Shown: positions 3,498 to 28,063, numbered from the stretch's first letter. The stretch: DNA of 55,825 nucleotides from an uncultured Eubacteriales bacterium (GCA_964448455.1 CAYUWQ010000001.1:1-55825); one strand, 5' to 3'. Notes: generated by a model not told the origin, from the sequence alone. Made by a program: numbers and translations.

Positions 3498-3501
3498 ATT
3501 A

Positions 3502-5180: not shown

Positions 5181-5929
5181 GAAACATTTTATTCACCATT
5201 GCTTATGACGGCACTGCCTATCACGGCTGGCAGGTGCAGGTAAACGGAGTCTCTGTACAGCAAACGATACAGGACGCGCTGGAAAAAGTTGTCGGCGCGC
5301 GTGAAAACATTATCGGGTGCTCCCGCACAGATGCCGGTGTGCATGCAAACATGTACTGTTTTAATATGAGGACGGGGACCGCGCTTGCCTGCGGCCGACT
5401 TGCCGGCGCGCTGAACGCGCATCTTCCGTTTGACATTTCGGTACTTTCCTGCCAGGAGGTTTTCTATGAATTTCATGCGCGCTACCACTGTGTGTCAAAA
5501 GAGTATATTTACAAAATATGGAACTCGCCGGTTAGAAACCCGTTTCAAAACGGCTATAGTTTGCACTATAAATATCCGCTTGACGAAAAAGCGATTGAAC
5601 ACGAAGCTGAGTCATTTTTAGGCAGTCATGACTTTGCGAGCTTTTGTTCCGCGCACAGTAAGATAAAGAGCACGGTGCGCAATGTTAGCGCGGTTACTGT
5701 CAGCCGGCGCGGTGACGAGTTGCTCTTTTCCGTTGAAGCGGATGGATTTTTGTATAACATGGTCCGCATTATGGTTGGGACACTGCTCAGGATTGAGCAG
5801 GGTAAAATCGAACGGGGCGCTATTCCCGCGATACTTGCCGCAGGGGACCGTTCGCGTGCCGGGATTACGGCGCCTGCCCACGGTCTGTATCTAAACAAGG
5901 TCAACTATCCCTCCGAAATAATCGGATAA
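5177..5929 (+). CDS. truA: tRNA pseudouridine(38-40) synthase
   Basis: 250 aa. YDGTAYHGWQ is present, along with the catalytic Asp motif CSRTDAGVHA and GFLYNMVRIMVGTL. The ecfAA'T-truA order is the classical Firmicute arrangement. Confidence 0.95.
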   Translation: MRNILFTIAYDGTAYHGWQVQVNGVSVQQTIQDALEKVVGARENIIGCSRTDAGVHANMYCFNMRTGTALACGRLAGALNAHLPFDISVLSCQEVFYEFHARYHCVSKEYIYKIWNSPVRNPFQNGYSLHYKYPLDEKAIEHEAESFLGSHDFASFCSAHSKIKSTVRNVSAVTVSRRGDELLFSVEADGFLYNMVRIMVGTLLRIEQGKIERGAIPAILAAGDRSRAGITAPAHGLYLNKVNYPSEIIG

Positions 5930-5983
5930 CCGTTCAAAATGAACATTTTCCCAAATCCCGATTGACGCAAGGAGCGTGAAAGC

Positions 5984-7240: not shown

Positions 7241-7255
7241 ACAATTTTCAAAGTC

Positions 7256-7283
7256 TTTAATTATGCTGTGACTGTGGTATAAT
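7256..7283 (+). promoter_or_regulatory. Putative sigma-A promoter with extended -10 (TTTAAT, 16 nt spacer, TGgTATAAT)
   Basis: TATAAT is at 7278-7283 and is preceded by TG at 7275-7276. It lies 24 nt upstream of the cvpA-like start. Confidence 0.45.
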
Positions 7284-7306
7284 AATCCTGTAGGGAGGGT
7301 AAAAAT

Positions 7307-8014
7307 ATGGCGTATGTTGTGGATATTTTACTTTTGCTTGTGTTTGCCGGGATGGTGCTGGTTGGTGTCGTAAAAGGCTTTGTTAAGTCTGTACTCGGCA
7401 TGGTGGCCATCATGGCCGCATTTCTGATTGCCTATCAGTTGAGCCCGGTTCTGGCCCCTGCCGTATATGATACTTTTTTAAGTGAAAGAGTTTATGAAAC
7501 CATTGAAACAAAACTTGCCGATGCCCCCGGAGCGACTCAAGCCGCCGGCCAGGTTTCAGCCGTGCTTGCGTCCATACCCGAGTATGTAAAGAGTATTGCA
7601 TCCTCCATTGGAATTGATACCGCCGGCATTACCGATAAAGTCAACAGCTTGGATAATTCAAGCGCCGCTATCGCGAGAGAACTGGCGGATAATGTCGCAA
7701 AGCCGGTAATCACAGCCGTTACACAGGCTATTCTTTTTGTCCTGCTGCTTATCATTTCCTATATTTTACTCATGATCGTTGTCAAACTGATTGATAAATT
7801 CTTCAAACTGCCTGTTCTAAAAACAGCTAACAAAATATTGGGCGGGGCGTCAGGCGCCGTAAAGGGCGTAATACTTGTCTTTCTGCTTTGCGTTATTCTT
7901 GAAATATTTTTTGGCTCCGGCAACGATTCGTTTATGTCCGGCGCTGTCGAATCATCGAAGATCATTGAATTTGTTCGCGGCAACAATTTCGTAGCGGACA
8001 GATTTTCTGCCTGA
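7307..8014 (+). CDS. CvpA (colicin V production) family membrane protein
   Basis: The N-terminus VVDILLLLVFAGMVLVGVVKGFVKSVLGMVAIMAAFLIAYQL is typical of CvpA-family proteins. Several TM helices are present. Confidence 0.75.
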   Translation: MAYVVDILLLLVFAGMVLVGVVKGFVKSVLGMVAIMAAFLIAYQLSPVLAPAVYDTFLSERVYETIETKLADAPGATQAAGQVSAVLASIPEYVKSIASSIGIDTAGITDKVNSLDNSSAAIARELADNVAKPVITAVTQAILFVLLLIISYILLMIVVKLIDKFFKLPVLKTANKILGGASGAVKGVILVFLLCVILEIFFGSGNDSFMSGAVESSKIIEFVRGNNFVADRFSA

Positions 8015-8049
8015 GTTAAACGATTTTAACCTGAAAGGAAATTGTTTTC

Positions 8050-8694
8050 ATGAAAGATTTGTTCAAAGGGAGTCTCACGGTGCCGAATTTGCTGACGGTT
8101 GTCAGAATTATTTTAATTCCTGTTTTTGCAGTGCTGTTTTACAACGATCAACTGATTTGGGCTGTTTTTGTTCTGTTTTTGTCGGGACTTACTGATTTTT
8201 TAGACGGTAAAATCGCCAGGCGTTTCAATCAAATCAGTGAACTCGGTAAAATTCTTGACCCGATTGCGGACAAACTTACGCAGATCACAATCGCAGTGAT
8301 GCTCTTCTTCGAGTTCCGCGGCGCGGAAAGCGGCGTTTTAAGAGCATTCAGCTGGGTGTTTTTATTCTTCCTTTTCAAGGAAGGGGTCATGGTAATCGGC
8401 GGCGCGGTTATGCTCTCGAAAGGCATACGCCCCGGTGCCTCGGAGATATTGGGCAAAGTTGCCACTTTTGTGTTTTACGGCTCAATGCTGTTAATCATTG
8501 CCTTCGGTCCGGGTGTCGGCGCCTTTGTTGGCAACGCTGCGGATTCCGCCCTGGAACTGCCGAATTGGGCTGTAATGGGTTTAGTGATTGTCTCCGCGGC
8601 ATTGACACTCGCCGCGTTTTTAAGTTATATGCCTGAAACATTCCGCCAGTTTAAAGAACACGCGGCGGCAAAAAAAGCAAAGAACCCAAAATAA
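8050..8694 (+). CDS. CDP-alcohol phosphatidyltransferase family protein (PgsA-like)
   Basis: The family signature D-x2-D-G-x2-A-R-x8-G-x3-D-x3-D is seen as DFLDGKIARRFNQISELGKILDPIADK. It is a polytopic membrane protein of 214 aa. Confidence 0.8.
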   Translation: MKDLFKGSLTVPNLLTVVRIILIPVFAVLFYNDQLIWAVFVLFLSGLTDFLDGKIARRFNQISELGKILDPIADKLTQITIAVMLFFEFRGAESGVLRAFSWVFLFFLFKEGVMVIGGAVMLSKGIRPGASEILGKVATFVFYGSMLLIIAFGPGVGAFVGNAADSALELPNWAVMGLVIVSAALTLAAFLSYMPETFRQFKEHAAAKKAKNPK

Positions 8695-13646: not shown

Positions 13647-16600
13647 ATGAAGCAATCAAAACGGATTCTCAGCGTGCTCATGGCAGTGGTAATGCTGCTC
13701 ACGGCGGTCCAAATCAATGCTTTCGCGGCTCACACAAGCTATGTGAACGCGGGCGGGTATGATATCTTGGACAATCCTTATGTTACGCCGGCTCAAGCAG
13801 CGTCCATGCTGTTGGACATGGTTGACGCGATGCTTGCCGAAGAGGACATGACAATACCTGTCGATATTTATGTCGGCAGCAAGACCATTGACTTAAGGTC
13901 GATTGACAAAGCAACAACATCAATTGACGACTTTTGGAATTGGACGTGGATTGACATTGCCTTTGGCGTTCTCAACTTCGCCGACATTGAAGACATGAAC
14001 ATGACCTGGATTGAGAATTGCCCGCTTAGAACAGATGCCGGCAAAACAGACCTCGATGTTGTTCTCGCGCTTACCCGGTTTTTGAAAGACAATAACGAAC
14101 GCATCGGCAAAATTATTGATGACACCTTTGATTACGGCTTTGTCGAAACTGTTACAGATTTACCGGACACCATACATGATGTTCCGGGAACGCTCAAAGC
14201 CTCTATCTTGGAAACTCTAAACGATGGTGTCGCGCCTCCCGCAGGCACAACGGTTGACAGCCTTGTTCAAAAGCTTGTTGACAGCGCAATTATCGGCGAA
14301 CTTGACCCGGAAACCGGCAAATATGACGGCGCCCTGCCCGGATTGCTTGGTAAAACCAATATCAGTACCACCAGTGTTTACACACTCTTTACCGATGCTA
14401 TTAACGCCGGAATTGAAGAACTTGTTGTTCCCGGTCTTTCAACATTGCTTTTAGGACTTGCCGGTGTTGAGATTACACCGGAATACCCAGGCGGCAATCC
14501 GGAAGGCGCGGAGAATCTGGATATGGTAATTGGTTTGCTGTCCGAAATCGGCGGCGATATACCTTATACACCTGAGGATTTGGAGACTCCGCTTGCCCAA
14601 ATGAATGCCGCGCTCACTTATATGCTTGTTGAAGGCGGTATGGATGTTTATTTCTATCTTGACGATACGGGGCTTCATATTACACCCGCCTTTGTGGAGT
14701 TGTTTGACGGGTTGGTTAGGGTTGCGTTGACACTTATTCCGAACCTCGGCTTTTTGGAGAATACGAAAGTGTTCAAAACCGAAGAAGAAGTGATGGCAAT
14801 GTCAACGCCGGACTGCTACGCATATCTTGCCCGTTTGCTGCTCAACGAATTCGTCGAGTTTGCTGACATACCGGAAACCGCATCTACCGTCAGGTCTGTA
14901 TTTACCTATCTGCTTATCAGTTTGGCAAAAGATGTTTTACCGGACAACAATTTTGAGCAAATGGTCGCGGCCGGCACACTCAACCCCTTTACTGACGGTA
15001 TCTTTGTTGTTGCCGCTCCGCTTATGCGCTACTATCTCAACGGTCTGTTGCCGATTGACATTCCGGCCGGGTTGAATTTTGAGCAGACCATCGGGTTTGT
15101 GTTTGACTGGTTCCTCGGCAAATACGGCGGGCTGTTCTATACAGGCAGTATCCTGCCTACAGATACCGTATGGCAGAAGATTGACAAGGTTCTTTTCAGT
15201 ATTATTCCGCTCAACTGGCTGCCTGCGCAGTTTACCGGTTCCAAATACCTGGTGATGGATTGGTTCCTCGGAAATATTCTTGATTTTAACTATGTCGGGC
15301 TGTTCAGCATTGTTAAAAGGAACCCGAACTCAGAACTGAACAACAGTGTTGTCAAGGTACTGCTGAACACGGTTGCCCGTTTTCTCAAGAGCATGCTTGG
15401 CAACAATGTAATCCTTCCGATGAATCTTCCGTCTCTGGATGCCATATTCACCAAACCAAATCTCCGTTCAACCATTCAACAGCTTTGCAGGTATCTGTAC
15501 GACAACGGCAACAGTCTGCTGGGCACCCTCTTCCCGCTGGTCACGCAAGTCATGGGCATATGGACAAAAGAAACCTATATCCGCAAAGCACCGGCGGGCG
15601 CGCCGCTGGTCAGCATTCCTGCGCTGCAAAGTCTGCTGGATTCCTATACACCGCGTAACTTAAATGCGAATTTGCAGTATTATGAGACTGGTTATAACTT
15701 CTTCGGAGCAGAAGACTTCACAGAACTGCGCAACTACTTTAACTACAAACAGGCAAAAACCGAAGTGCAGGGCTTGCTTGACGCGTACGCTGAAGATCCC
15801 GAAACGCTTGATCTCCAGAAGAATACCGACGCTGCTTACCGGGTTACCTTCTATTACAACCGCCTGGTGAAGAGGACTCCCCTGAGTACCACACAATTGT
15901 TGCTGGAGATGAAAAAAGCCCTTGAGCAAAATGAGTATCTGCAGGAGGACTATACCGCAAAGAGCTGGGCGGTGTATCAAACCGCGCTTCAGTTTGCGGA
16001 AAAAGTACGCGTTGGCGTCGTCTTGGGTGAGTCGTGGATTCGGCAGTCCACCATATCGGCTGCAAGGCAAAATCTATTTAAGGCCGTTAAAGGTCTGACA
16101 GATTTTGTTCCGTATGCTGATTATACACAGCTTGACATGTACATTGCCGAAGCGGTAAACAGGCTGGCCAGCCTACCTGCCGGTATTTTCACACCGGAAA
16201 GCATTCAGGATTTACGGGATGCCATTACCGCGGCGCAAGGCATCGATCGATTTGTTTCTTATGAGGAACAAACAATTGTGGATGATGTTGCGGCTCAGCT
16301 TTATACTGCGATGTATGGCCTTGTTTATATTCTGGCTCCCGCGATCAACCCGATTCCCTATTCCGTAAACGATTTCTGGGGTAATCCTATAACGCCGGTT
16401 GTAAATACGACAAGACGATTTATCTACGGTTTGGCTCCGGGCGGGTTTAGTTTAAGTTTCTTCGATTTGGTTGGCGGCGCTTCCGCTTCACTCATATTCA
16501 CACAGCAGGGTAAGGGTACCGGCACCAGGGTTAGACTGATGTCCGGCGGTTCTCTGATTGCGACTTACACAGTTGTAATCTTTGGCGATGTGAACGGTGA

Positions 16601-16808
16601 CGGCAATATTGATGACGGTGACAGCGGTCAAATCGTTGATTATGAAAACTACCTGTACAACTGGGCAGGCAGTCCTGACAAACGCTTTGCCGCGGATGTC
16701 AACGGCGACGGCACTATCGACTCCATCGATGCCGGCGTCGTAACGGATGTTCTGAATTACATGAAAACTGTTGATCAGGTTACCGGTTTAGCCCTCCCTG
16801 TGGCTTGA
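13647..16808 (+). CDS. Large secreted protein of unknown function with FIVAR-like helical repeats and a C-terminal type I dockerin
   Basis: GGAGGTG RBS. The signal peptide is MKQSKRILSVLMAVVMLLTAVQINAFA. About 700 aa have no motif I can name. Then come helical repeats (YTAKSWAVYQTALQFAEKV, FTPESIQDLRDAITAAQGI), a small beta domain and the dockerin repeats DVNGDGNIDDGD and DVNGDGTIDSID. Confidence 0.85.
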   Translation: MKQSKRILSVLMAVVMLLTAVQINAFAAHTSYVNAGGYDILDNPYVTPAQAASMLLDMVDAMLAEEDMTIPVDIYVGSKTIDLRSIDKATTSIDDFWNWTWIDIAFGVLNFADIEDMNMTWIENCPLRTDAGKTDLDVVLALTRFLKDNNERIGKIIDDTFDYGFVETVTDLPDTIHDVPGTLKASILETLNDGVAPPAGTTVDSLVQKLVDSAIIGELDPETGKYDGALPGLLGKTNISTTSVYTLFTDAINAGIEELVVPGLSTLLLGLAGVEITPEYPGGNPEGAENLDMVIGLLSEIGGDIPYTPEDLETPLAQMNAALTYMLVEGGMDVYFYLDDTGLHITPAFVELFDGLVRVALTLIPNLGFLENTKVFKTEEEVMAMSTPDCYAYLARLLLNEFVEFADIPETASTVRSVFTYLLISLAKDVLPDNNFEQMVAAGTLNPFTDGIFVVAAPLMRYYLNGLLPIDIPAGLNFEQTIGFVFDWFLGKYGGLFYTGSILPTDTVWQKIDKVLFSIIPLNWLPAQFTGSKYLVMDWFLGNILDFNYVGLFSIVKRNPNSELNNSVVKVLLNTVARFLKSMLGNNVILPMNLPSLDAIFTKPNLRSTIQQLCRYLYDNGNSLLGTLFPLVTQVMGIWTKETYIRKAPAGAPLVSIPALQSLLDSYTPRNLNANLQYYETGYNFFGAEDFTELRNYFNYKQAKTEVQGLLDAYAEDPETLDLQKNTDAAYRVTFYYNRLVKRTPLSTTQLLLEMKKALEQNEYLQEDYTAKSWAVYQTALQFAEKVRVGVVLGESWIRQSTISAARQNLFKAVKGLTDFVPYADYTQLDMYIAEAVNRLASLPAGIFTPESIQDLRDAITAAQGIDRFVSYEEQTIVDDVAAQLYTAMYGLVYILAPAINPIPYSVNDFWGNPITPVVNTTRRFIYGLAPGGFSLSFFDLVGGASASLIFTQQGKGTGTRVRLMSGGSLIATYTVVIFGDVNGDGNIDDGDSGQIVDYENYLYNWAGSPDKRFAADVNGDGTIDSIDAGVVTDVLNYMKTVDQVTGLALPVA
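16584..16763 (+). other. Dockerin module (duplicated Ca-binding loop-helix repeats) inside the CDS 13647-16808
   Basis: The sequence is GDVNGDGNIDDGDSGQIVDY...ADVNGDGTIDSIDAGVVTDVLNYM. This is two copies of the DxNxDGxIDxxD F-hand motif about 35 residues apart. Confidence 0.85.
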
Positions 16809-16995: not shown

Positions 16996-17841
16996 ATGTT
17001 TAACTTTCCCATAGGCGTAATTATTGACAGTTTCAGAACAGATATTCCGGCAGCGGTAAAAAAAGCAGCTGCGGTAGGCGCTCAGGGCATCCAGGTTTAT
17101 TCCACCTATGGCGAAATGGCGCCGGAGAATCTTTCAACAGCCAAGCGTAAAGAGTTTGCCGCGTTGGTGGCAGACAGTGGCCTTCAAATATCCGCGCTTT
17201 GCGGGGACCTGGGAGGCGGAGGCTTCACCAAAAAAAAGATGAACAAAGAAAAGGTTAACCGCTCAAAAGAAATTCTAAATCTAGCCAAAGAACTTGGCAC
17301 GGATGTTGTCACCACTCACATCGGTGTGGTTCCGGACGACCCGGACAACGATCGATACAAGATTATGCAGGAAGCCTGCCGTGAACTGGCCGAATATGCT
17401 GATACGCTTGACGCGCATTTCGCAATAGAAACGGGCCCGGAAACATCTTTTGTATTAAAAGGGTTTTTAGATACATTAAATTCAAAAGGCGTTGCGGTTA
17501 ATCTTGACCCGGCGAACCTTGTCATGGTAACCGGTGACGATCCCGTCAAAGCGGTTTACAACTTAAAGGACTACATTGTACATACGCACGCTAAAGACGG
17601 CAAGCAATTATTTTATAAAGACCCCGAAATTGTCTATGGCATGAAAAAGTCTGTTATTATAACTGCCAGTTCCTTCGAAGAGGTGCCGCTGGGTGAAGGG
17701 CAGGTTGACTGGCCTAAATATTTAGCGGCACTCGATGATATCGGCTATAAGGGATTTTTGACAATCGAGCGTGAAGTCGGCAAAAATCCCGAAGAAGATA
17801 TCCGCAACGCAGTACAGTTTTTGAAAAAATTAATGCTATAG
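16996..17841 (+). CDS. Sugar phosphate isomerase/epimerase (xylose isomerase-like TIM barrel, AP_endonuc_2 fold)
   Basis: 281 aa. The pattern ...AIETGPE...NLDPANL...HTHAKDG...GFLTIEREV... contains the metal-ligand E/D/H/E positions typical of this family. Confidence 0.8.
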   Translation: MFNFPIGVIIDSFRTDIPAAVKKAAAVGAQGIQVYSTYGEMAPENLSTAKRKEFAALVADSGLQISALCGDLGGGGFTKKKMNKEKVNRSKEILNLAKELGTDVVTTHIGVVPDDPDNDRYKIMQEACRELAEYADTLDAHFAIETGPETSFVLKGFLDTLNSKGVAVNLDPANLVMVTGDDPVKAVYNLKDYIVHTHAKDGKQLFYKDPEIVYGMKKSVIITASSFEEVPLGEGQVDWPKYLAALDDIGYKGFLTIEREVGKNPEEDIRNAVQFLKKLML

Positions 17842-17857
17842 AGGGGGCAGATTGACG

Positions 17858-18733
17858 ATGAAAACATGTGTAAGCAGTTACAGCTTTAATAAGCTGTTGA
17901 AGTCCGGCGAATACACGCAGTTGACTTTGATTAAAGAAGTTAAAAGCATGGGCTTTGACGCGATTGAATTTACAAATCTCGACCCGCCGGAGGGCATAAG
18001 CATGATTGATTTTGCGCAGATGATTCGCTCGGAAAGCGACACCCGTAAGCTGCCGGTTGCCAACTACACTATCGGTGCGGAACTGCTCAACTGCGCGAAC
18101 CTTGATGACGAGGTCGCACGCTTGTGCGAACAGGTCGACATTGCCGTTATTCTTGGCGCAAAAGGCATGCGGCACGACGCTACCGGGGGATATAAAGGCG
18201 TTGAGAAAAGCTATAAAAGTTTTGACCAGGCACTGCGCGCGCTTATTGAAGGCTGCAGGCGTGTTACCGAATATGCCGGCGAAAAAGGCATCAAAACCAT
18301 GGTGGAAAACCACGGTTTCTTTTGCCAGGAAAGTGAGAGAATAGAAAAACTCGTCACCGGTGTCGGTAAAGAAAACTTCGGCGTCTTGCTGGATATGGGC
18401 AACTTTCTTTGCGCGGACGAGGCGCCCGAACTTGCCACAGGCAGGCTCGCGCCGTTCGTGAAACATGTACACTGCAAAGATTTTCATGTAAAAAGCGGGC
18501 AGGGCGTCAATCCCGGCGGCGGCTTTTTTACCAGCAGGGCAGGCAATTTCCTGCGCGGTGCCATTGTCGGCCATGGTGATGTGCCCGTGCTGCAATGCCT
18601 TTCAATCCTTAATAAAAACGGGTACGACGGGTATGTCAGTATTGAGTTTGAAGGCATTGAAGAAAACATGATGGCCATCGAAACAGGCCTTAACAACCTG
18701 GAACGGTTTATAGAAATGGCAGAGATGTTTTAG
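17858..18733 (+). CDS. Sugar phosphate isomerase/epimerase (xylose isomerase-like TIM barrel), second tandem copy
   Basis: I set the start at ATG 17858, with GAGGGGG 10 nt upstream; the track's TTG at 17852 is less likely. The motifs are MVENHG...LLDMGNF...HVHCKD...YVSIEFEG. Confidence 0.8.
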   Translation: MKTCVSSYSFNKLLKSGEYTQLTLIKEVKSMGFDAIEFTNLDPPEGISMIDFAQMIRSESDTRKLPVANYTIGAELLNCANLDDEVARLCEQVDIAVILGAKGMRHDATGGYKGVEKSYKSFDQALRALIEGCRRVTEYAGEKGIKTMVENHGFFCQESERIEKLVTGVGKENFGVLLDMGNFLCADEAPELATGRLAPFVKHVHCKDFHVKSGQGVNPGGGFFTSRAGNFLRGAIVGHGDVPVLQCLSILNKNGYDGYVSIEFEGIEENMMAIETGLNNLERFIEMAEMF

Positions 18734-19235: not shown

Positions 19236-19276
19236 AGTTGAAACAAGTGTATTTTAAAAGCGATGAGGTTATTATA

Positions 19277-20774
19277 ATGGAAAATAGATCACAATACGAT
19301 CTCATCATCATCGGCGCAGGCGTCAACGGTCTGTCCGCCGGGCTTGCTTATGCCCTGAACATTGATATGTCACAAAAAAAAGTACTGATCATCGAAAAGG
19401 GGCATGTCTGCGGCGGGTATGTAACCTCATATGCAAGAAAGGGCTATAATTTCGATACCTGCCAGATGATATCCAATGTTTCCGAAATCTTGGATTACTT
19501 TGGCGTTGAACTCCAATGGAAGGAGTTTAAGGATGACTTTGTCCGCATCTTCAAAGCGGAGTCAGGACATCGCGAGCCTGTGTTGTTTGAACTGTGTGCG
19601 GGTCAGCAGGCGTTCAGGCAGAGAATGCTGTCAATATTCCCGGCGGATGCCGCCAAACTCGAAAAACTGTTTGACTACTCGGATGCGATGTTTGCCGAAC
19701 TCTACGGTCTGAAATACGCGCCGAGTCCTGCTGAAATCGTCAGAATGCTTATTGCCTGCCCCAAAGTCATTAAAAACGCCTCGAAAACTTTTGACGAATA
19801 TCTCGGTCAGTTTGGAATTGACAATCCTGATATTAAGCTTGTATTTCAAACCTTTTCGGGCTTGTGCGGCTTGCCAAACGATAAGATAGCCGCGCTGCTG
19901 ACGGTTGGGGTGCTCGATTCTCTGCTTGAAAAGGCGTACAGACCAGATGATCAGTTTATCGAATTGCCGCGCAAAATGGAACAGCGTTTTGTCGAACTGG
20001 GCGGTGAAATCCTGTATAAGACCGAAGCGGAAAAGATACTGATGAGTAACGGTAAGGCGTACGGATGTGAAGGCTACTTTCGGCAGTTTGATCAGCATAG
20101 ATGAACTACGCGCAATCAACCGCCGATATGCCAACCGGATCGAAAATATGGAAATGACAACATCTGCCTTTACCGTTAACCTCGGCCTTGACAGTGAAAA
20201 TATCCCCGGTCTTGAAAAGCTTCAATGCGGTTATGCGATCCTGACAAGCGGGAATGAAGCGTTTTCCCGGCTATGTGAAGCGTATAGAAAGAATGAAATC
20301 GCGCTGAGCGAAAACTGCTTTTATTTGGGGTTCTCATATCAGACCGGTCAGGGTAGAGGAAAACCCGCATTATCCATTCAGGCAGTTCCCGCGCCAATAT
20401 TGAACTGGAAAGAACTGCGTGCCTCGGACAGAAAACAATACATCGCCGAGAAAGAAAACAAAGCCGATTTGATCATTAAAATCGTTGAAAAACACTTGAT
20501 TCCCTCCTTGAGTAAACATGTAGTTGTCAAGGATATATCCACCCCGGCGACCTATTCCAGGTACTCCGGTTCATCAAACGGCTCAATTTACGACATGGCT
20601 TCTGTTCCAAAAAACTTCGGCAGAAACCGTTTGCCGGTATTAACACCAGTGAAGGAGCTTATGATGCCCAAATTTGCTCACGGTGTGTTTGGCGCTATGA
20701 ACAGCGGACTGCAGGCGGTTGACATTTTGCTCGATGGTGCAGTGATGAATGGGAACTCGCGTTTTGGAAAGTAA
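19277..20774 (+). pseudogene. FAD-dependent oxidoreductase (phytoene desaturase/CrtI-like family) interrupted by a +1 frameshift near 20064-20068
   Basis: The N-terminal dinucleotide fold is YDLIIIGAGVNGLSAGLAYA...LIIEKGHVCGG. ORF 1 ends ...NGKAYGCEGYFRQFDQHR*. The family-typical continuation (G)VKATFGSLISIDE...SAFTVNLGLD runs on in the +1 frame to 20774. Skipping one nucleotide (t at 20066) restores a single product of about 499 aa. Confidence 0.6.
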
Positions 20775-20865: not shown

Positions 20866-20894
20866 TTGAAAAATTCATAATTCAGTGCTATAAT
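20866..20894 (+). promoter_or_regulatory. Putative promoter for the activase-GRE fusion gene (TTGAAA, 17 nt spacer, TATAAT)
   Basis: TTGAAA is at 20866-20871 and TATAAT at 20889-20894. The leader is AT-rich and about 95 nt long. I recognise no riboswitch-like conserved core in it. Confidence 0.55.
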
Positions 20895-20996: not shown

Positions 20997-23900
20997 GTGC
21001 AAAAAGTCCAAATGCAAACAGAAATGAAACAAAGAAACGAGGATTGCGCCGGAGCGCTGAAGGCGGTAAAAATTCAGCGTACCTGTGTTCATGACGGACC
21101 CGGGTTGCGCACCACCATCTTTTTTCAAGGGTGCGGACTGAATTGCCTGTGGTGCCAGAACCCGGAGACCTTATCGGCTAATATCAGCAAAACCGAAAAT
21201 TGTGCCTGTTCGATTGATAGTATTGCTGAAATCGTCCTGCGGGACAAAGAATACTACCGGGCAGCCGGCGGCGGAGTGACACTCAGCGGCGGCGAACCCT
21301 TTTTGCAGCATACCGAAAACCTTGTTAAACTGCTTCAGATTCTGAAGGCGGAAGGTATTGGCATTACTGCCGAGACGGCGCTATTTGTACCATGGGAAAG
21401 AATCGCGGCAGTCCTTCCGCTCATTGACTTATTCCTTATTGACTTGAAAGCTGTCGGTGAAGACGCGCTTCATAAAAAACTCACCGGGCAGGACGGCGCG
21501 CTTATACGCGAAAACATTGATCGATTGCTTGCGTCCAATGCCAATGTGCATTTTCGTATGGTGATGGTACCGGGGTTGAATGACAGCGATGAAAATATCA
21601 AGGCTACGGCCGCTTTTTTACAGTCAAAAGGGTTTAATTCAATTGAACTCTTAAAATACCATAATATGTATGAGGACAAAGCAAAACGACTCGGCCTGGC
21701 ATTTGAAAAACTAAATATCGGCGCCGAAAAAAGTCTCCTGTCGCTTAATAACGGCGTTGAATTATTCCGGCAATACGGCATAAAAGCAACAAACTCCGAC
21801 CTCGACTCACCACCCGAACCCGCGGAATTCACGCAGCGGGTATTGAATATCCAAAAAGCCATCCGCGAAAGTAAGCGGGCACTCTGTTTTGAAGTTTCCA
21901 GACTTAAGACGAAGTATTACAAGAAGAACGGGTTTAATAAACCGACCCCGATTCACAGAGCAGAGCGGCTTGCGTATGTGTTAAAAAACAAAACCGTAAA
22001 AGTCTATCCGGAAGAACTGCTTGTCGGCAATTTCACCTCAAAAAGAGTGGCCGGTCAGGTTTGGGAAGAGCAGTACGGTGTGCTTGATATTACTTTTTTA
22101 TATAAAATAAACCGTCAAAAACCCGTATCCTTCCAGTGCTCTCGCAAGGAAAGACTGTATTTCTATGCCCATATATTCCCATTCTGGATGAAGCATAGTT
22201 TGCTTAGAAAAGTGAATCCTAAATTGTCGGACTTTAAGATGATGATTGCCCGATCTTCCGAAATGATTGCGGGATTCAATAACAATATGGCGGCGATTGC
22301 CCACTTTATTGTGAACTTCGACAGAATGCTTGAACTGGGTACAACCGGTATTATTGAGGAAATCAGACAAAAACAAATAGAAAAGCCGGACAACAATCAG
22401 GACTTTTATAACGGAGCGGTTATCGCACTGAAAGGTCTGGAAGATTTTGCGCAAAACTATGCCGACTATCTCCTGCAAACGAGTAAAGAAGAACAGGATC
22501 CCGTCCGCCGGCAGGAACTGGCCGACATGGCGCGGATATGCGCGCATGTACCGAAAAATCCGGCGCGGACTTTCCATGAAGCGCTGCAATGTATGACATT
22601 TTTACAAATCGCGCTTTGCATTGAAGCGTATGAAAATGCCGTTTCTTTCGGGCGTGTTGATCAACTGCTTTATCCCTACTATAAACGGGATGTCGAGGCG
22701 GGGATCATCACTTACGAAAAAGCAAAGGAATTGCTGTGTCTGTTTATACTGAAAATGGATGAGTGTATCCTGGTGAATGACGGAGATTCTTACCTGAATG
22801 TCAGCAAACTGTTTGAAACGCTTTCAACCGACCAGTCGCTGACTTTCGGCGGAGTTGACAAAGAGGGTAAGGACGCAACAAACGACATAACCTATATGCT
22901 CATTGATGCCTGTGAGCTGCAGCCCCTTGCCGTTAACATGACCGCGCGGGTTCATCAAGGCAGTCCGCAGCGTTATCTGGACAGGTTGGCGGAAATCTAT
23001 ATAAACGGTTGTCCCATGCCCGAACTGTTTAGTGATGAGATTTATATTGAAACGATTATGCGGCATTATCCAACCACGCTTGAAAACGCCCGAAACTACT
23101 CGATCGTCGGCTGCGTTGAACCGGTTGCGTCGGATGATCATTTCGGGAACACGGACTGCGCCAATATGAACCTTGCGCTGCCCCTGCTGCAGGCGATCAA
23201 AGGGCATGAACATGATTTGTGGAATTTTGGCAAGGAAGACCGGAACGAAAAGATAATAACAAAATTTTTAGACTATACTCTCAAAGGCGAAAATGCTCTG
23301 TCAAAGTCTATACTGGCAAGGCACAAAAAGAAAGTTGAAAAGCTGAATACCGGGAAAGGCTTGTACATATATAATCCGCCGGCGGATATGGACGAGCTGC
23401 TGGCACGCTTTCAGACCCGGTTAAATAAATTAGCCGCCGGGGTGCTCGCTGACCATCAACGCATAGAAAAAGTTCTGCGCGAAAACTTTACGACACCGCT
23501 TGCATCCTCTCTCTATAAAGGTTGTGTTGAAAGGGGACTGGATGCCTATGAAGGCGGTACGGATTACAACAGCTCCGGTATTCAGGCGGTGGGCGTTACC
23601 GATGTTGCTGACTCTCTGCACGCAATCAACGAAGTTGTTTACAAACAGGGATTGTACACCATGCAAGATATTATTACGGCAATCGACAGTAATTTTGAAG
23701 GGGAGAAAAATCGGGATATACACGCCGCGCTTCTTGCTGTGCCGAAGTTTGGCGATGATTCCTCCGGTGAAGCCGCCCGGTGGGTCACAAAAGTAATGGG
23801 GATTTATAACAACGCACTGGCCTCAGTACCCAACTGTCCGCGCAACGGCGTCTATTCGGCAGGCTACTACGCGTTAAATGTCAGTGACAGATACGGTAAA

Positions 23901-24314
23901 AAAACGCAGGCACTGCCTTCCGGGAGACTCAACGGGGTTCCGCTGGCCAACAGTGTCACACCGCATTACGGGATGGAAGCGACGGACCTGTTCTCCTCGC
24001 TAAATGCTGTTTCACAAGTGGACTTCACTTCATACGCGGCAAACGGATCAACGGTTACCTTTACAATCGATTCCGCGCTTTTCCAGGGAACGGAAGGCGT
24101 AAAGAATCTTGGCGGTATTTTCAAAACCTTCCTTTCAAAGGGCGGTATGCAGTTTCAGCCCAATGTGATTAACCGTGCAATTTTGCTGGAAGCCTACAAG
24201 AATCCGGAAAAGTACAAGTATTTAATGGTGCGTGTCGCAGGCTACTGCGCATACTTTAACGAGCTTTCGGACGAACTTAAACAGATCATCATTAACAGAA
24301 CTTGTTACGCATGA
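20997..24314 (+). CDS. Single-polypeptide fusion: PflA-type glycyl-radical-enzyme activase (radical SAM, about aa 1-265) plus PFL2/eliminase-type glycyl radical enzyme (about aa 275-1105)
   Basis: GTG start with AGAGGGTGA 7 nt upstream. The activase part shows VHDGPGLRTTIFFQGCGLNCLWCQNPE (C46/C50/C53), GGGVTLSGGEP and MVMVPGLNDSDENI. The linker is SDLDSPPEPAEF. The GRE part shows the PFL2-like N-terminus (PTPIHRAERLAYVLKNKTVKVYPEELLVGN), the Cys loop YSIVGC706VE708P and the glycyl fingerprint MVRVAG1082YCAYFNEL...IINRT. Confidence 0.9.
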   Translation: MQKVQMQTEMKQRNEDCAGALKAVKIQRTCVHDGPGLRTTIFFQGCGLNCLWCQNPETLSANISKTENCACSIDSIAEIVLRDKEYYRAAGGGVTLSGGEPFLQHTENLVKLLQILKAEGIGITAETALFVPWERIAAVLPLIDLFLIDLKAVGEDALHKKLTGQDGALIRENIDRLLASNANVHFRMVMVPGLNDSDENIKATAAFLQSKGFNSIELLKYHNMYEDKAKRLGLAFEKLNIGAEKSLLSLNNGVELFRQYGIKATNSDLDSPPEPAEFTQRVLNIQKAIRESKRALCFEVSRLKTKYYKKNGFNKPTPIHRAERLAYVLKNKTVKVYPEELLVGNFTSKRVAGQVWEEQYGVLDITFLYKINRQKPVSFQCSRKERLYFYAHIFPFWMKHSLLRKVNPKLSDFKMMIARSSEMIAGFNNNMAAIAHFIVNFDRMLELGTTGIIEEIRQKQIEKPDNNQDFYNGAVIALKGLEDFAQNYADYLLQTSKEEQDPVRRQELADMARICAHVPKNPARTFHEALQCMTFLQIALCIEAYENAVSFGRVDQLLYPYYKRDVEAGIITYEKAKELLCLFILKMDECILVNDGDSYLNVSKLFETLSTDQSLTFGGVDKEGKDATNDITYMLIDACELQPLAVNMTARVHQGSPQRYLDRLAEIYINGCPMPELFSDEIYIETIMRHYPTTLENARNYSIVGCVEPVASDDHFGNTDCANMNLALPLLQAIKGHEHDLWNFGKEDRNEKIITKFLDYTLKGENALSKSILARHKKKVEKLNTGKGLYIYNPPADMDELLARFQTRLNKLAAGVLADHQRIEKVLRENFTTPLASSLYKGCVERGLDAYEGGTDYNSSGIQAVGVTDVADSLHAINEVVYKQGLYTMQDIITAIDSNFEGEKNRDIHAALLAVPKFGDDSSGEAARWVTKVMGIYNNALASVPNCPRNGVYSAGYYALNVSDRYGKKTQALPSGRLNGVPLANSVTPHYGMEATDLFSSLNAVSQVDFTSYAANGSTVTFTIDSALFQGTEGVKNLGGIFKTFLSKGGMQFQPNVINRAILLEAYKNPEKYKYLMVRVAGYCAYFNELSDELKQIIINRTCYA

Positions 24315-24340: not shown

Positions 24341-24370
24341 AGGCCGCTTACCATTCCGATAAGCGGTCTT
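24341..24370 (+). terminator. Weak hairpin downstream of the fusion gene (possible terminator or attenuator)
   Basis: aggccgctta, a 9-nt loop, taagcggtct gives 10 bp with one G-U pair. No clean T-run follows. Confidence 0.35.
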
Positions 24371-24433: not shown

Positions 24434-24471
24434 ACATGCAGTATGTTATTACATGTCGGAGGAAACATTTA

Positions 24472-25449
24472 ATGGATTTGAAAAGCAAACACAATCTTTT
24501 TTTTATTGCGCACAGAATGAATGTCGGCAGCCCTTCAAACGAGGCGTATAACCATGTCGACAACGGCATGGAAGCCCTGGATGCGGTGTTGGAGATCAAT
24601 TCTGACAAGGAAAAGTATCAGCATATGAAAGGGTTTGAATGTGATGTCAGGCTGACGGGAGACAACCAGCTTGTCGTCGTGCACGACGCGAATGCAAAAA
24701 CGATGACAACAAACAAGTACAACAAAAACATCGGCGAAATGACATACAAAGAACTGCAGTGCCTTGAAATCAGAAACGCCGGTCTCTACTACAGCGGCTT
24801 AAAAAAGAGGGCGCTAATATTGCCGGACTCAAAGCGGATCAGAAATATCATCAACCAACGGCTTCAAAACAAGACGGTAGTGCCCAGAGCATTTGAAATG
24901 TTTGAGTATTTAGCCGCCCAAAAATATAGCGGTGAGATTGTGCTGGAGATAAAAGATGCCGTTGACAAGACTCGTGACGCAACGGTTGAGCTTGTAAACA
25001 GCTTTAAAAATCAATTGAATATCGTTGTAAAAAGTTATGATATAAGACGCACGATTGAAATCGGGGAAAAAACGGGCGTAAAAACCGGTTTGCTCGAAGC
25101 TGTAAGACTGGTCAATAAAAGGGGTCCGATTGACGGAAAGTTTATCAAAGACATGCCGTTTGATTTTTACTCGATTTTGTGGTCAAAAGTCAACAATAGC
25201 ATCATGAGTTCTTTGGTTGAAAACGGTAAAGATTTGTATATGTGGACAATTGACAGCGCAGCGCATATGTTTGCTGCATTGAAAAGATTGGAAAATTATT
25301 ATGACCAATTCGGTTTACTGCCCGAAAACACTCATTTTATAACGAACTTGCCTATTCTACTGGAGGAATATATCAGCGGTCAAAAGAATAATGTTCCGTT
25401 TGTAAAATCCACCTTCAATCGTTATACAAAGCTGTTTGGATTAAATTAG
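24472..25449 (+). CDS. Glycerophosphodiester phosphodiesterase (GDPD)-like protein, apparently cytoplasmic
   Basis: I set the start at ATG 24472, with GGAGGA 6-7 nt upstream. FFIAHRMN..., ...DNGMEAL..., GFECDVRLTGDNQLVVVHD follow the GDPD pattern HR...E/D-N...E-x-D-V...HD. No signal peptide is present. Confidence 0.7.
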   Translation: MDLKSKHNLFFIAHRMNVGSPSNEAYNHVDNGMEALDAVLEINSDKEKYQHMKGFECDVRLTGDNQLVVVHDANAKTMTTNKYNKNIGEMTYKELQCLEIRNAGLYYSGLKKRALILPDSKRIRNIINQRLQNKTVVPRAFEMFEYLAAQKYSGEIVLEIKDAVDKTRDATVELVNSFKNQLNIVVKSYDIRRTIEIGEKTGVKTGLLEAVRLVNKRGPIDGKFIKDMPFDFYSILWSKVNNSIMSSLVENGKDLYMWTIDSAAHMFAALKRLENYYDQFGLLPENTHFITNLPILLEEYISGQKNNVPFVKSTFNRYTKLFGLN

Positions 25450-25553: not shown

Positions 25554-27041
25554 CTATTTCGAGATACCGCCCCACAAATCCGTTTTTTTAGATCCGGTTA
25601 CTGCCAATACATCACCCAATTCGTCCGTCGGCAAAGCGTCAATACTTCCGTTCATTCGAAACAGTGCAATTGCTTTTTGAACAGCGTCATAACGCTTTTT
25701 GCTGATCTTGTTTGTTATTGCGAAGAAAAGACAGACAGACATGAGGATAACCGGGATAATAATGAACATCCATTTGATGCCAAATACAACATCGGTTTTC
25801 GCGTACGAGGCGGGATCAAAATCCGACGCGGTTGCCTTTAACAGGTTGTATTGGTTTTGATCAAAACCCAATGCTTTCAGACCGATACCCAACAGAAGAA
25901 TGGCCACCCCGCTTGAAGCTTTTCTCAAAAAAGTGGTTATTCCGCTGTATAAACCCTCTCTGCGTTTGCCGGTCATAACCTCATCAACATCATAAATATC
26001 GGTGAGCATAGACCAGGTGGACAAGTTGCCGGAAGATGACCCGACAGCTATCAGCATTGCGAATATGCAAAATATAAAGACGGGGGTGCCTTGGTTAGCC
26101 GGGATAAACGCGAGCATTGTTAAAATCCAAACCGGCAATCCGATATAAAGCGGGAATGCTTTGCCCTTGCTTTTCGCAAGCGCACCCATAACGGCCATCA
26201 GTCCCATAGAGCATACCAGTAAAATGCCGACTATCAGCTCATAGCTTTTATACTTCAAAACAACAACATCAATGTAGAAAATCAGCAGCGCAAGCATTAA
26301 GTCGATAGCGATTTGATACATTAGGAATATACCCAAGAAGTTAAGATAAGATTTGTTATTGAAAACAGATAGCCAGCCTTTCAGGGTCGTTTTTTCAGGT
26401 TCCGGCAGGTCTTTCTTTTCTTTTGTACCGAGAAATGTGAACAGCCAGCACAAGGCAAAAATGGCGCCAAGCAGTACCGCCATAACGAGGTACCCGGTTT
26501 TTTGTTGCGGTCCGTTGATGTCTCCCCCCATTGTTTTGATGATGATGCCGGGGATAACGGCGCAAAAGAGAGAAGCACCGCCCGAGAATATCATCCGGAC
26601 AGTCGTAAAACTCGTTCTTTCGTTATAATCGGATGTGATGTCCGAGAGAATGGCGTTGTACGGCACCATAACAATCGTAAACGCCGTACCGAAGAACATA
26701 TAGGCAAACATATGATAGATGATTTTTGCGGTCATATTTTCAATACCAAACGAATAAAACAGCATAATGAAAGAGAGGAAAACCGGGGCTATCCCAATCA
26801 GAAAAAAGAATCGTCTGCGTCCGAATTTCGAGCGGGTTTTATCGGATATTCTGCCGACAATCGGATCGGTTATTGCGTCCCAAAACTTGCCTGTCAGGAT
26901 GATCATTGTTGTAAAAATAATTGGCAGCCCTTCAACAAGAACCAGGAAGTTCATATACAGCAGGCTGAATACGAGGAACGCACCGCCCCCGTATACATCG
27001 CCGAAGCCGTAGCCGAGCTTTGCTTTTAGATTACTTTTCAT
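25554..27041 (-). CDS. Glycoside-pentoside-hexuronide (GPH):cation symporter family (MelB/YihO-like) transporter
   Basis: LGYGFGDVYGGGAFLVFSLLYMNFL...KFWDAITDPIVGRISDKTRSKFGRRRFFFLIG is the GPH N-terminal signature. About 12 TM segments are present. I prefer the ATG at 27041, which has AGAGAGGA 9 nt upstream. The track's GTG at 27092 would overlap the upstream stop codon. Confidence 0.85.
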   Translation of the reverse strand: MKSNLKAKLGYGFGDVYGGGAFLVFSLLYMNFLVLVEGLPIIFTTMIILTGKFWDAITDPIVGRISDKTRSKFGRRRFFFLIGIAPVFLSFIMLFYSFGIENMTAKIIYHMFAYMFFGTAFTIVMVPYNAILSDITSDYNERTSFTTVRMIFSGGASLFCAVIPGIIIKTMGGDINGPQQKTGYLVMAVLLGAIFALCWLFTFLGTKEKKDLPEPEKTTLKGWLSVFNNKSYLNFLGIFLMYQIAIDLMLALLIFYIDVVVLKYKSYELIVGILLVCSMGLMAVMGALAKSKGKAFPLYIGLPVWILTMLAFIPANQGTPVFIFCIFAMLIAVGSSSGNLSTWSMLTDIYDVDEVMTGKRREGLYSGITTFLRKASSGVAILLLGIGLKALGFDQNQYNLLKATASDFDPASYAKTDVVFGIKWMFIIIPVILMSVCLFFAITNKISKKRYDAVQKAIALFRMNGSIDALPTDELGDVLAVTGSKKTDLWGGISK

Positions 27042-27088
27042 GTCTGCAAATCCTCTCTTTTTTACTTGTTGCGATGAAAGACTTTTTG

Positions 27089-27994
27089 TCACTCGAAATT
27101 GCTTTGGATTGTTTTTACAAGCTGATCGTTTGCCGGGAAGTCAAAACAAATCCAACCGTATTTATTCCGCTTAAGTAAGGGATAAGTATTAAACTTTGAA
27201 TTAACATATTTAGAATTGAAGCGCGGGATAAACGGCATGCCGGCAGTACTCAGAAAATGAATCGCTATTGTGTTGTCCGCCGGAGCAAAATGATCAAGCG
27301 CAGGCTTAGCCGCTTTTTTCCATTTCTGCACAGGGTTCAACATGAAGCTGTCTTGAATAACGGCGTAGTATTCCAGGCTTTTGGGGTCTGTTACGGCAAC
27401 AAGACCGGGCAGAGGCAGTCCGTCTGAGGAAAGAGGAGAATCAAAACTGTTTGTAAAGTTTAACCCGGAATTACTGTCATTGAAAGAATGGCAAGACTTG
27501 CCTGTTGTGCAACGGCGCAATAATACCATTTTACCCCTGCATTCGTCTAAAACGGGGATTCTGTTTTCCAAAAACCAGCGTGAAACATTTTTTTCAATAA
27601 ACTGTTCATAGAATGCGGGGAAAAATTCATCAGTATTGTTGCCTCTGTCTGTTTTTACGGCAACTATAATGGTTTCGGATTGATATTGATCAAGGAAACT
27701 TACCATGTCATTGAAAATATCTTGAAAAAGCAGCAAGGGTGACCTTTTGCTTTTTGAAGTCCGGCAGTTTGCAATACCATGTACCGCATAGAATACGGAA
27801 TTCCGAAGCTCAAGTCTGATATCAAGAAATCTGATGCCGTTTTCAAGCTGTTGCCGGATGTTTGTATCCTGACATCTGCTGAACAGAGAAAGGGAGACAA
27901 ATTGTGTTGAACTGTCGTGCGTACCCGGCAGATTGATGAGCGATATCGGTACGGTTCCCGGAATCGACTTTTGCCAGTTTGTCACATCCATCAT
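27089..27994 (-). CDS. Phosphatidylinositol-specific phospholipase C X-domain (PI-PLC-like) protein without a signal peptide
   Basis: INLPGTHDSS (catalytic His), NGIRFLDIRLEL (Arg) and FYAVHGI (second His) follow the bacterial PI-PLC catalytic pattern. I placed the start at ATG 27994 or 27991, because the track's GTG at 28045 lies upstream of the predicted -10 element. Confidence 0.7.
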   Translation of the reverse strand: MMDVTNWQKSIPGTVPISLINLPGTHDSSTQFVSLSLFSRCQDTNIRQQLENGIRFLDIRLELRNSVFYAVHGIANCRTSKSKRSPLLLFQDIFNDMVSFLDQYQSETIIVAVKTDRGNNTDEFFPAFYEQFIEKNVSRWFLENRIPVLDECRGKMVLLRRCTTGKSCHSFNDSNSGLNFTNSFDSPLSSDGLPLPGLVAVTDPKSLEYYAVIQDSFMLNPVQKWKKAAKPALDHFAPADNTIAIHFLSTAGMPFIPRFNSKYVNSKFNTYPLLKRNKYGWICFDFPANDQLVKTIQSNFE

Positions 27995-28034
27995 ATTCCC
28001 CCAGAAATCTAATAGAATTTGTTTCTCAATAAAT

Positions 28035-28063
28035 AGTTTAAACACATTTCAACACGGTGTCAA
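28035..28063 (-). promoter_or_regulatory. Putative promoter for the PI-PLC-like/GPH pair (TTGACA, 17 nt spacer, TAAACT)
   Basis: On the minus strand, TTGACA is at 28063-28058 and TAAACT at 28040-28035. Confidence 0.45.

Follow-up and report, generated by a model that had tools for sequence, protein, structure and literature searches.

Can a glycyl radical enzyme (GRE) and the radical S-adenosylmethionine (SAM) activase that serves it form one functional polypeptide, and which reaction would such a protein catalyze? The question is raised by an open reading frame (ORF) in a 55,825-nt stretch of DNA from an uncultured Eubacteriales bacterium (GCA_964448455.1, CAYUWQ010000001.1:1-55825; hereafter the window), in which an activase domain is followed, in a single frame, by a PFL2-type GRE domain. 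Our analysis indicates that the product is likely a genuine, conserved, single-polypeptide self-activating GRE. Its sequence points most probably to an eliminase or isomerase of the Cys-x-Glu type that activates itself and acts on a hydroxylated substrate.

Domain organization of the fusion protein

The ORF (20997..24314, plus strand, stop codon included) extends over 1105 amino acids (aa) from a GTG start, and the ORF list confirms the view of the sequence-only reading of this DNA that it is uninterrupted. A GAGGG Shine-Dalgarno-like sequence ends 8 nt 5' of the GTG. Four Pfam domains are matched along the protein in the order Radical_SAM (aa 41-201), Fer4_12 (33-121), PFL-like (from 280) and Gly_radical (984-1088). 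The two GRE domains score above their gathering thresholds, with 448 bits for PF02901 (cut-off 24.3) and 70.1 bits for PF01228 (cut-off 22.2), and a chance ORF need not be considered at a length of 3.3 kb and with four significant matches to domains. Profile searches, suggested earlier as a means to fix the domain borders, support a complete activase and a complete GRE. Every motif named in the sequence-only reading was found where it had been placed, including VHDGPG (aa 31-36), GGGVTLSGGEP (aa 91-101), VPGLNDSDENI (aa 191-201) and the linker SDLDSPPEPAEF (aa 267-278, nt 21795-21830). The proposal of a complete Cys-x-Glu GRE of the PFL2 type holds as well, since both Pfam GRE domains, the C706/E708 pair and RVAG1082Y are present.

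Conservation and spread of the fusion

A protein search with the fusion returned 560 matches at E <= 1e-10. The best 120 clusters among them comprise proteins of 1038-1146 aa that are 64-99% identical to the query and cover at least 90% of it (at least 98% in all but two); the same four Pfam domains are found in all but two, and the sequences derive from independent NCBI, JGI, ENA and Logan assemblies. A scan of GTDB, with one genome per species, revealed relatives in 126 species. The 80 of these loci that were listed show 56-78% identity and, by record title, include approximately 23 from Clostridia/Bacillota, 27 from Thermodesulfobacteriota or 'Deltaproteobacteria' (Smithella, Syntrophaceae, Desulfomonilia and Desulfosudaceae), 9 from Spirochaetota, 9 from Myxococcota/Bacteriovoracaceae, 7 from archaea (Promethearchaeota, Sigynarchaeum and Hadarchaeota) and 5 others. 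The same fused architecture, for which a database search had been proposed, is therefore found in at least 120 clusters and 126 GTDB species. Across 175 aligned, non-identical members, the activase is on average 60% and the GRE 70% identical to the window protein. Members of the family carry database names such as 'pyruvate formate lyase family protein', 'radical SAM protein', 'formate C-acetyltransferase' and 'hypothetical protein' (examples are HHT83538.1, PKL41305.1 and MHA1437809.1), and no NCBIfam model covers the family.

These data bear on whether the fusion is an assembly or sequencing artefact in which an indel or the loss of a stop codon joined adjacent activase and GRE genes. The oxidoreductase gene upstream of the fusion is frameshifted in the window, so that the sequence or the locus is not error-free, and unfused relatives with overlapping activase and GRE genes do exist. 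Against an artefact stand the uninterrupted frame in at least 120 independent clusters and 126 species genomes, the junction length, which is fixed in 168 of the 175 members, and the nature of the 'short' versions, which are themselves artefacts, with out-of-frame tails in P0121, P0124 and P0127. The probability of an artefact is negligible, and the explanation is already refuted by the comparative data, which indicate that the fusion is real and under selection. A 264-aa protein, P0125, was considered as a genuine split version and rejected, because it corresponds to a fused gene (L090) that a scaffold gap of 217 N and a frameshift have disrupted.

The activase domain

The activase is collinear over aa 31-242 with aa 14-222 of the Escherichia coli pyruvate formate-lyase (PFL) activating enzyme (PFL-AE; PDB code 3c8f). 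This alignment to a solved structure agrees with the collinearity to PflA activases that had been proposed for residues ~25-265. The domain contains the DGPG Gly-loop-binding motif, CX3CX2C, the GGE SAM motif, DxK (D149 and K151), R187 and H222. Because DGPG, C46, C50, W52, C53, GGE, D149, K151, R187 and H222 are invariant or nearly so among the 37 to 175 members compared, the N-terminal activase looks catalytically competent.

With respect to class, the isolated domain passes the TIGR02494 PFLE_PFLC model (218.7 bits, cut-off 174.35) and fails the TIGR02493 PFLA equivalog (155.9 bits, cut-off 231.75). The description of the domain as a 'PflA-type activase' in the sequence-only reading is not borne out, since it resembles PflA in its shortness only. 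The 'mismatch between activase class and GRE class' deduced there disappears too, as the PFLE_PFLC class normally partners PFL2-type GREs.

The eight-cysteine ferredoxin-like insert, which accommodates up to two auxiliary [4Fe-4S] clusters and is typical of PFLE_PFLC activases without being required by the model, is missing. The PFLE_PFLC profile matches the ORF in two separate stretches, leaving out approximately its positions 50-104. Just 25 residues separate E57 from D83, and the sole cysteines in aa 58-82, C69 and C71, are not conserved in the family. Among the 175 members, the stretch at the insert site is 21-31 aa long and is devoid of cysteine in 121. In a direct alignment, the fusion family has a gap where other activases have an insert of ~55 aa that bears CX2CX2CX3C. 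Profile, alignment and cysteine conservation thus concur with the earlier observation that the ferredoxin-like insert and its CX2CX2CX3C signature are absent.

A search of 1.84 billion representatives with the activase domain identified two kinds of next-best relatives, namely proteins of ~300 aa with the insert (best 188 bits) and proteins of 250-267 aa without it (best 170 bits). Four stand-alone activases of the second kind (250-267 aa) were tested, and their best score was also obtained with PFLE_PFLC, so loss of the insert is recurrent within the class that serves PFL2-type GREs. According to a 2026 review of GREs, the radical-SAM domain stands alone only in PFL-AE and RNR-AE, the latter acting on ribonucleotide reductase (RNR); judged by their sequences, the fusion family and the stand-alone insert-less activases are exceptions to this statement. 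The insert-less stand-alone PFLE_PFLC activases are P0135, P0138, P0140 and P0146.

The GRE domain

By sequence, the best solved relatives of the GRE domain are Archaeoglobus fulgidus PFL2 (2f3o, 338 bits), propanediol dehydratase (5i2a/9rco) and glycerol dehydratase (1r8w), with all of which it aligns over the full length. They are followed by CutC, PflD, YbiW, HypD, sulfonate lyases and decarboxylases, and the succinate synthases (109-134 bits) and PFL (95 bits) come lower again, among the weakest of the solved matches. A full-length AlphaFold2 (AF2) model, with a mean predicted local distance difference test (pLDDT) value of 83.4 and a predicted template modelling (TM) score of 0.85, matches the folds of 5i2g, 9rco, 1r8w and 2f3o with target-normalised TM values of 0.88-0.91. 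Residues G705, C706, V707, E708 and P709 are invariant in the family, as are V1078, R1079, A1081, G1082, Y1083 and C1084. The 2026 review notes that Cys-x-Glu is kept in all characterised eliminases and isomerases, and that a two-cysteine Cys loop occurs in PFL and TdcE only.

An insert of ~51 aa (aa 743-793; mean identity 35%) follows the Cys loop and splits the alignments to PDB entries into two stretches. It is absent from a second fused family, referred to below as the P0154 type, and from unfused relatives. Two helices are predicted by AF2 within the insert (746-761 and 767-786), in a block with pLDDT values of ~79-93.

The junction between the domains

The junction is variable in sequence, with a mean identity to the window protein of 44% over aa 263-279 in the 175 members, and fixed in length. 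The spacing from F257 to F278 is 20 aa in 168 of these members and ranges from 19 to 21. In the AF2 model, a coil at 271-279 lies between the last elements of the activase and the first helix of the GRE. The combination of variable sequence and fixed length points to a junction of ~14 residues that would hold the two domains in a constrained geometry rather than act as a loose linker.

Fused and unfused relatives

The fusion is not a one-off: it is common in databases, and a second fused family, the P0154 type, retains the ferredoxin-like insert. The P0154 type comprises ~60 clusters of ~1090-aa proteins from Deltaproteobacteria, Acidobacteriota and Oligoflexia whose full-length identity to the window protein is 35%. 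It shares with the window family the domain order, a similar length and the Cys-x-Glu motif. By contrast, it keeps the ferredoxin-like insert with CX2CX2CX3C motifs, lacks the 51-aa insert in the GRE domain, and has close unfused relatives (~800 aa, 50-58% identity). One member of the P0154 type is encoded in the anaerobic eukaryote Anaeramoeba flamelloides (P0335 = KAJ6251211.1), which suggests that a fused gene was transferred into a eukaryote.

The usual gene order is GRE followed by activase. In the unfused relatives of P0154 the order is the reverse, and a gene for an insert-bearing activase of 302-318 aa is located directly upstream of the GRE gene. The two genes overlap by 20 nt in L088 (4064-5020 / 5001-7391) and by 4 nt in L089 (4096-5004 / 5001-7403). 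The upstream position of the activase gene in these relatives explains the domain order of the fusion, and the 'reversed order' that the sequence-only reading had taken as a peculiarity of the fusion is no such thing. From the arrangement of these loci, this part of the GRE tree natively has the activase gene before the GRE gene. The most likely origin of the fusion is an overlapping pair of this kind in which the stop codon separating the upstream activase gene from the GRE gene was lost; a single stop-loss or frameshift event would be enough to create the fusion. When activase domains are ranked by similarity to that of the window, the best stand-alone protein with the insert (188 bits) and the best without it (170 bits) both come before the P0154 activase (162 bits), a ranking that by itself does not appear to settle the number of fusion events behind the two fused families.

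Proposed mechanism and function

A catalytic cycle can be outlined from the established chemistry of PFL-AE and of the eliminases. A reduced [4Fe-4S]+ cluster on C46/C50/C53 would cleave S-adenosylmethionine, the glycyl radical domain would swing out of the barrel into the active site of the activase, and the 5'-deoxyadenosyl radical would take the C-alpha hydrogen of G1082. Once the domain has returned, the glycyl radical would make a thiyl radical on C706, which would abstract a hydrogen from the hydroxyl-bearing carbon of the substrate. With the substrate's hydroxyl group deprotonated by E708, the neighbouring C-O (or C-N, C-S) bond would break, in a 1,2-elimination or a ring-opening isomerisation that yields a carbonyl product. 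The 2026 review places the N-terminal helices of GREs at the dimer interface and the glycyl radical domain at the periphery, and the tethered activase may therefore serve its own chain or the partner chain. The fusion would constitute a one-gene module, which fits its patchy spread over bacterial and archaeal phyla and the lack of a conserved partner gene. A wider proposal is that the fixed-length tether and the helical hairpin now serve for docking or for stabilising the radical in place of the ferredoxin-like domain that was lost, that the enzyme installs and re-installs its own radical in an intramolecular or intradimer complex, that its substrate is new among GREs, and that the gene spread horizontally between bacteria and Asgard or other archaea; taken together, these suppositions are doubtful.

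Several points weigh against a self-activating eliminase or isomerase. All 80 of the listed loci belong to metagenome-assembled genomes. The ferredoxin-like domain is reported in the 2026 review as needed for a lasting radical in HPAD, and the fusion family is without this domain. The review also states that, for PFL, a 1:1 ratio of activase to GRE speeds the loss of the radical as well as its formation, so that a permanent 1:1 tether is not obviously advantageous. The whole protein scores below the cut-off of TIGR01774 PFL2-3 (492.8 bits, cut-off 678.2) and far under those of all substrate-specific equivalog models, including HpfG, HpsG, HypD and CutC, and the reaction class is read from the Cys-x-Glu motif and overall similarity. 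The substrate pocket may also differ. The residues that we take to bind glycerol in glycerol dehydratase are H164, H281, S282, E435 and D447 (1R9D numbering). H164, C433, E435 and D447 of that enzyme correspond to H436, C706, E708 and D720 here; H281/S282 are replaced by N547/A548 beside an invariant E546, which suggests a pocket unlike those of known dehydratases. A similar Y-E-Q-A pattern is found in this region of A. fulgidus PFL2.

A further reservation of this kind concerns the structural model, since the Cys loop (704-707) and the Gly loop (1078-1085) have pLDDT values below 50 in the full-length AF2 prediction. When the GRE domain is modelled on its own with the 36 homologue sequences also used for the full-length model, the blocks of 10 residues containing the two loops average ~80-86 and the Gly-loop hairpin is formed. 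The contrast could stem from competition between two states of the glycyl radical domain, and may equally reflect a limit of the method. Residues 604-610, 960-964 and 991-995 are also below 50 in the full-length model, and only aa 991-1001 stay below this value in the GRE-only model.

Genomic neighbourhood and flanking signals

The features of the locus are compiled in Table 1. The number of promoter-like sites across the region equals the expectation from shuffled sequence, and the site upstream of the fusion gives no more than a hint of a promoter belonging to the gene itself.

Table 1. Coordinates of the fusion gene, its domains and motifs, and flanking features in the window
Feature	Position	Strand	Basis and remarks
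CrtI-family flavin adenine dinucleotide (FAD) oxidoreductase, frameshifted	19238..20774	+	Directly upstream of fusion; two overlapping ORFs
Promoter-like site, TTGAAA-17-TATAAT with TG extension, 11/12	20866..20894	+	Consensus scan; ~100 nt upstream of start codon
Activase-GRE fusion ORF	20997..24314	+	ORF list, motif positions
Radical-SAM GRE-activating domain, aa 25-265	21069..21791	+	Pfam, NCBIfam, alignment to 3c8f
C46-x3-C50-x2-C53, ligands of SAM-binding [4Fe-4S] cluster	21132..21155	+	100% conserved, 175 members
Short stretch, aa 58-82, at insert site of other PFLE_PFLC activases	21168..21242	+	Alignment
Junction, ~aa 266-279	21792..21833	+	Sequence variable, length fixed
PFL2-type GRE domain, aa 280-1105	21834..24311	+	PF02901 and PF01228
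Cys loop IVGC706-V-E708-P, single Cys then x-Glu	23103..23123	+	Motif position
Family-specific insert, ~51 aa (aa 743-793), predicted helical hairpin	23223..23375	+	Alignment, AF2 model
Glycyl radical fingerprint RVAG1082Y, inside C-terminal glycyl radical domain	24231..24245	+	24 residues from C-terminus
Inverted repeat, 10-bp stem, possible terminator	24344..24366	.	30 nt past stop; called on minus strand by the scan; pattern match only
GPH-family (MFS_2) cation symporter	25554..27092	-	Pfam and NCBIfam TIGR00792

For a comparison of neighbourhoods, the ORFs of 87 loci (86 fetched loci and the window) were clustered, Pfam domains were counted on first and second neighbours, and enrichment was evaluated over 81 non-redundant loci. 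No gene is a universal neighbour over the 81 loci, the recurrent neighbours being lineage-specific, and none is shared across the Christensenellales, Smithella and Promethearchaeota loci. A second activase or GRE homologue was found neither within ~8-10 kb of the fusion in the 87 loci nor in the window. A homologue of the GPH (glycoside-pentoside-hexuronide) symporter is encoded within 8 kb of the fusion gene in 12 fetched loci and the window, all of Clostridia type, and is a candidate importer of the substrate by association only. In 16 Syntrophia-type loci a gene for a GntR/FCD (FadR-like) regulator immediately precedes the fusion on the same strand, a TetR regulator is a neighbour in 5 Myxococcota loci, and in 3 loci the gene next to the fusion codes for an iron alcohol dehydrogenase. 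Metallophos/5'-nucleotidase domains were counted in 6 first-neighbour and 4 second-neighbour proteins; these may reflect synteny between related Smithella genomes and are given no weight.

The CrtI-like gene upstream of the fusion has intact orthologues of ~515 aa in the same position in 5 related Clostridia loci; counted with the broken copy of the window, the gene occurs in 6 loci. The orthologue from L007 aligns to the window in two frames (aa 5-268 and aa 283-522) that meet near 20052-20065, and the broken gene is either a pseudogene or the product of a sequence error. The window is syntenic with its two closest relatives, L007 and L025, with which it shares genes for a dockerin protein, two TIM-barrel proteins, the oxidoreductase, the fusion, a GDPD-like protein, the GPH transporter and a PI-PLC-X-like protein.

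Among the outer genes, the dockerin protein (13647-16808, plus strand; 1053 aa) has a C-terminal type I dockerin and a sub-threshold match to FG-GAP-like repeats (20.7 bits), and suggests that the source is a cellulosome-bearing member of the Clostridia. The two xylose-isomerase-like TIM-barrel proteins are encoded in tandem (16996-17841 and 17852-18733, plus strand) and show weak similarity to IolE. The GDPD-like phosphodiesterase (24436-25449, plus strand) and the PI-PLC-X-like protein (27089-28045, minus strand) are located on the other side of the fusion. The TIM-barrel, GDPD-like and PI-PLC-X-like flanking genes are syntenic in the two closest relatives only. In L090 (JGI 2124908004 scaffold, 1-4750 and 5001-8612), the broken fusion adjoins genes for an IolD-like thiamine-pyrophosphate (TPP) enzyme, an aldehyde dehydrogenase, a GFO_IDH_MocA dehydrogenase and LacAB_rpiB, a set that resembles an inositol or sugar catabolic cluster.

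Alternative readings of the reaction

The names attached to the sequences at their sources, 'formate C-acetyltransferase', 'pyruvate formate lyase family protein' and 'pyruvate-formate lyase/pyruvate-formate lyase-activating enzyme', describe a PFL with an attached activase. Such a function is exceedingly improbable, given that the two-cysteine loop confined by the review to PFL and TdcE is G-C706-V-E here, that TIGR01255 is matched with 109 bits against a cut-off of 994.2 and in the C-terminal part only, and that E. coli PFL is among the weakest solved matches, with 95 bits compared to 338 for 2f3o. Hydrocarbon activation in the manner of an alkyl- or aryl-succinate synthase, as proposed for A. 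fulgidus PflD and Asgard homologues, is very unlikely. It would accord with the best solved match, A. fulgidus PFL2, whose function is debated between dehydratase and alkylsuccinate synthase (2026 review; Hermodarchaeota paper), with the many carriers among Smithella/Syntrophaceae, whose presence would fit, and with the FadR-like regulator upstream in 16 loci. However, the FadR_C match overlaps the generic FCD domain and the FadR models score below cut-off, the solved succinate synthases (MasD 134 bits, BSS 109 bits) match much more weakly than the eliminases do (250-338 bits), genes for small accessory subunits were not seen beside the fusion gene, and the invariant Glu of Cys-x-Glu is a hallmark of eliminases and isomerases.

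Two alternatives specify a substrate within the eliminase and isomerase group. That the protein is a functional orthologue of the B12-independent glycerol/1,2-propanediol dehydratases, converting glycerol, propanediol or ethylene glycol to an aldehyde, would agree with its best fold matches, which are the propanediol and glycerol dehydratases, and with the conservation of H164, C433, E435 and D447 as H436, C706, E708 and D720. The iron alcohol dehydrogenase immediately beside the fusion in 3 loci would suit this reaction, and the products of the GDPD-like and PI-PLC-X-like genes in the window and its two closest relatives could release glycerol derivatives. The identity to these enzymes is only 25-29%, however, H281/S282 appear as N547/A548 with the extra invariant E546, the 51-aa insert after the Cys loop is specific to the family, microcompartment shell genes and an aldehyde dehydrogenase are missing from the neighbourhoods, and glycerol would need no sugar-type GPH transporter, so that this function seems rather unlikely. 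A sugar, an anhydro-sugar or a cyclitol as the substrate of an eliminase or isomerase, comparable to YbiW/PflD on anhydrohexitol phosphates, is a tentative possibility. It draws on the GPH symporter near the fusion in 12 fetched Clostridia-type loci and the window, on the two xylose-isomerase-like, weakly IolE-like TIM-barrel proteins upstream in the window and its relatives, on the one scaffold with an adjoining IolD-like TPP enzyme, aldehyde dehydrogenase and GFO_IDH_MocA dehydrogenase, and on the retention of Cys-x-Glu in GRE isomerases. These neighbours are nevertheless confined to one lineage or a single locus, enrichment over the 81 loci found nothing universal, the IolE-like scores are far under the cut-off (53 compared to 290), and the similarity to YbiW/PflD (260-287 bits) is below that to the diol dehydratases. 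For the preferred self-activating Cys-x-Glu eliminase or isomerase, our best guess at the substrate is a polyol- or sugar-like hydroxylated compound that is imported, in Clostridia, by the GPH transporter. The sequence-only reading had left the substrate unassigned, in agreement with this outcome.

Comparison with known systems

The closest structural counterparts of the GRE domain are glycerol dehydratase (1R8W/1R9D), propanediol dehydratase (5I2A/5I2G/9RCO) and A. fulgidus PFL2 (2F3O). They have in common with it the ten-stranded barrel (TM 0.88-0.91), a single Cys in a Cys-x-Glu loop, the glycine of a C-terminal RVxGY, equivalents of glycerol dehydratase H164 and D447, and an activase of the PFLE_PFLC subfamily. 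In these systems the activase is a separate protein, whereas here it is N-terminal in the same polypeptide and lacks the two-cluster insert. The fusion also diverges from them in its low identity (25-29%), in the N/A pair in place of glycerol dehydratase H281/S282, in the added E546 and the 51-aa helical insert, and in failing all curated substrate-specific models.

E. coli PflA (3C8F/3CB8) is the one activase for which the 2026 review records a solved structure. The fusion activase resembles it in its collinearity over aa 31-242, in the DGPG, CX3CX2C, GGE, DxK and H motifs, and in having no ferredoxin-like domain. It differs from PflA in failing the PFLA model and passing PFLE_PFLC, in being covalently fused, and in its partner, which is a Cys-x-Glu GRE and not PFL. 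A GRE and a radical-SAM activase in one frame have been described as NrdD-NrdG fusions in eukaryotic class III RNR, where the fusion was argued to ease horizontal transfer (Lundin et al. 2010, PMC3019208). Those proteins belong to the RNR branch rather than the PFL-like one, have the GRE before the activase, and are confined to a small number of eukaryotes.

Full-text searches of openly accessible literature brought up no account of a PFL-like GRE that is joined to its own activase, and none is given in the 2026 GRE review, a GRM review, a 2024 paper on aminoacyl-radical enzymes, the Pelobacter genome paper or the Hermodarchaeota paper. The words 'fusion' and 'fused' are absent from the 2026 review and from the 2024 paper. 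The published precedent for GRE-activase fusion thus appears to be limited to eukaryotic class III RNR, with the opposite domain order. The sequence-only reading had allowed that this exact fusion might prove both common and already functionally described; it is common, and no functional description was found. The parts of the protein are well known, its sequences are already abundant in public databases, and its chemistry is probably conventional. It is set apart by the conserved union of both enzymes in one polypeptide, by an eliminase-class activase that has no auxiliary clusters, and by an insert in the GRE that is specific to the family.

Implications for GRE activation and annotation

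The 2026 review names a complex with a 7-mer peptide as the sole structural view of activation, and describes the flip of the glycyl radical domain out of the barrel and back, like the role of the ferredoxin-like domain, as not understood. It also regards insoluble activases as the main bottleneck for new GREs and calls for more stable GRE:activase interfaces. With a natural, strongly conserved fusion of fixed geometry, a system is already at hand in which to capture the activation complex and to test whether activation takes place within one chain or across the dimer, and a comparison with the P0154 sister family, which keeps the insert, offers a direct test of the role of the ferredoxin-like domain. 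Because the activation step and the role of this domain become directly testable, the interest of the fusion family is moderate to high.

For the organisms that carry it, the fusion affects the reconstruction of metabolism. In genomes of Smithella, Spirochaetota and Promethearchaeota, annotations of the gene read 'pyruvate formate lyase' or 'formate C-acetyltransferase'. As the two-cysteine motif of PFL is missing, it is unsafe to count the gene as a formate-producing PFL, and a hydrocarbon-activating label is likewise unsafe.

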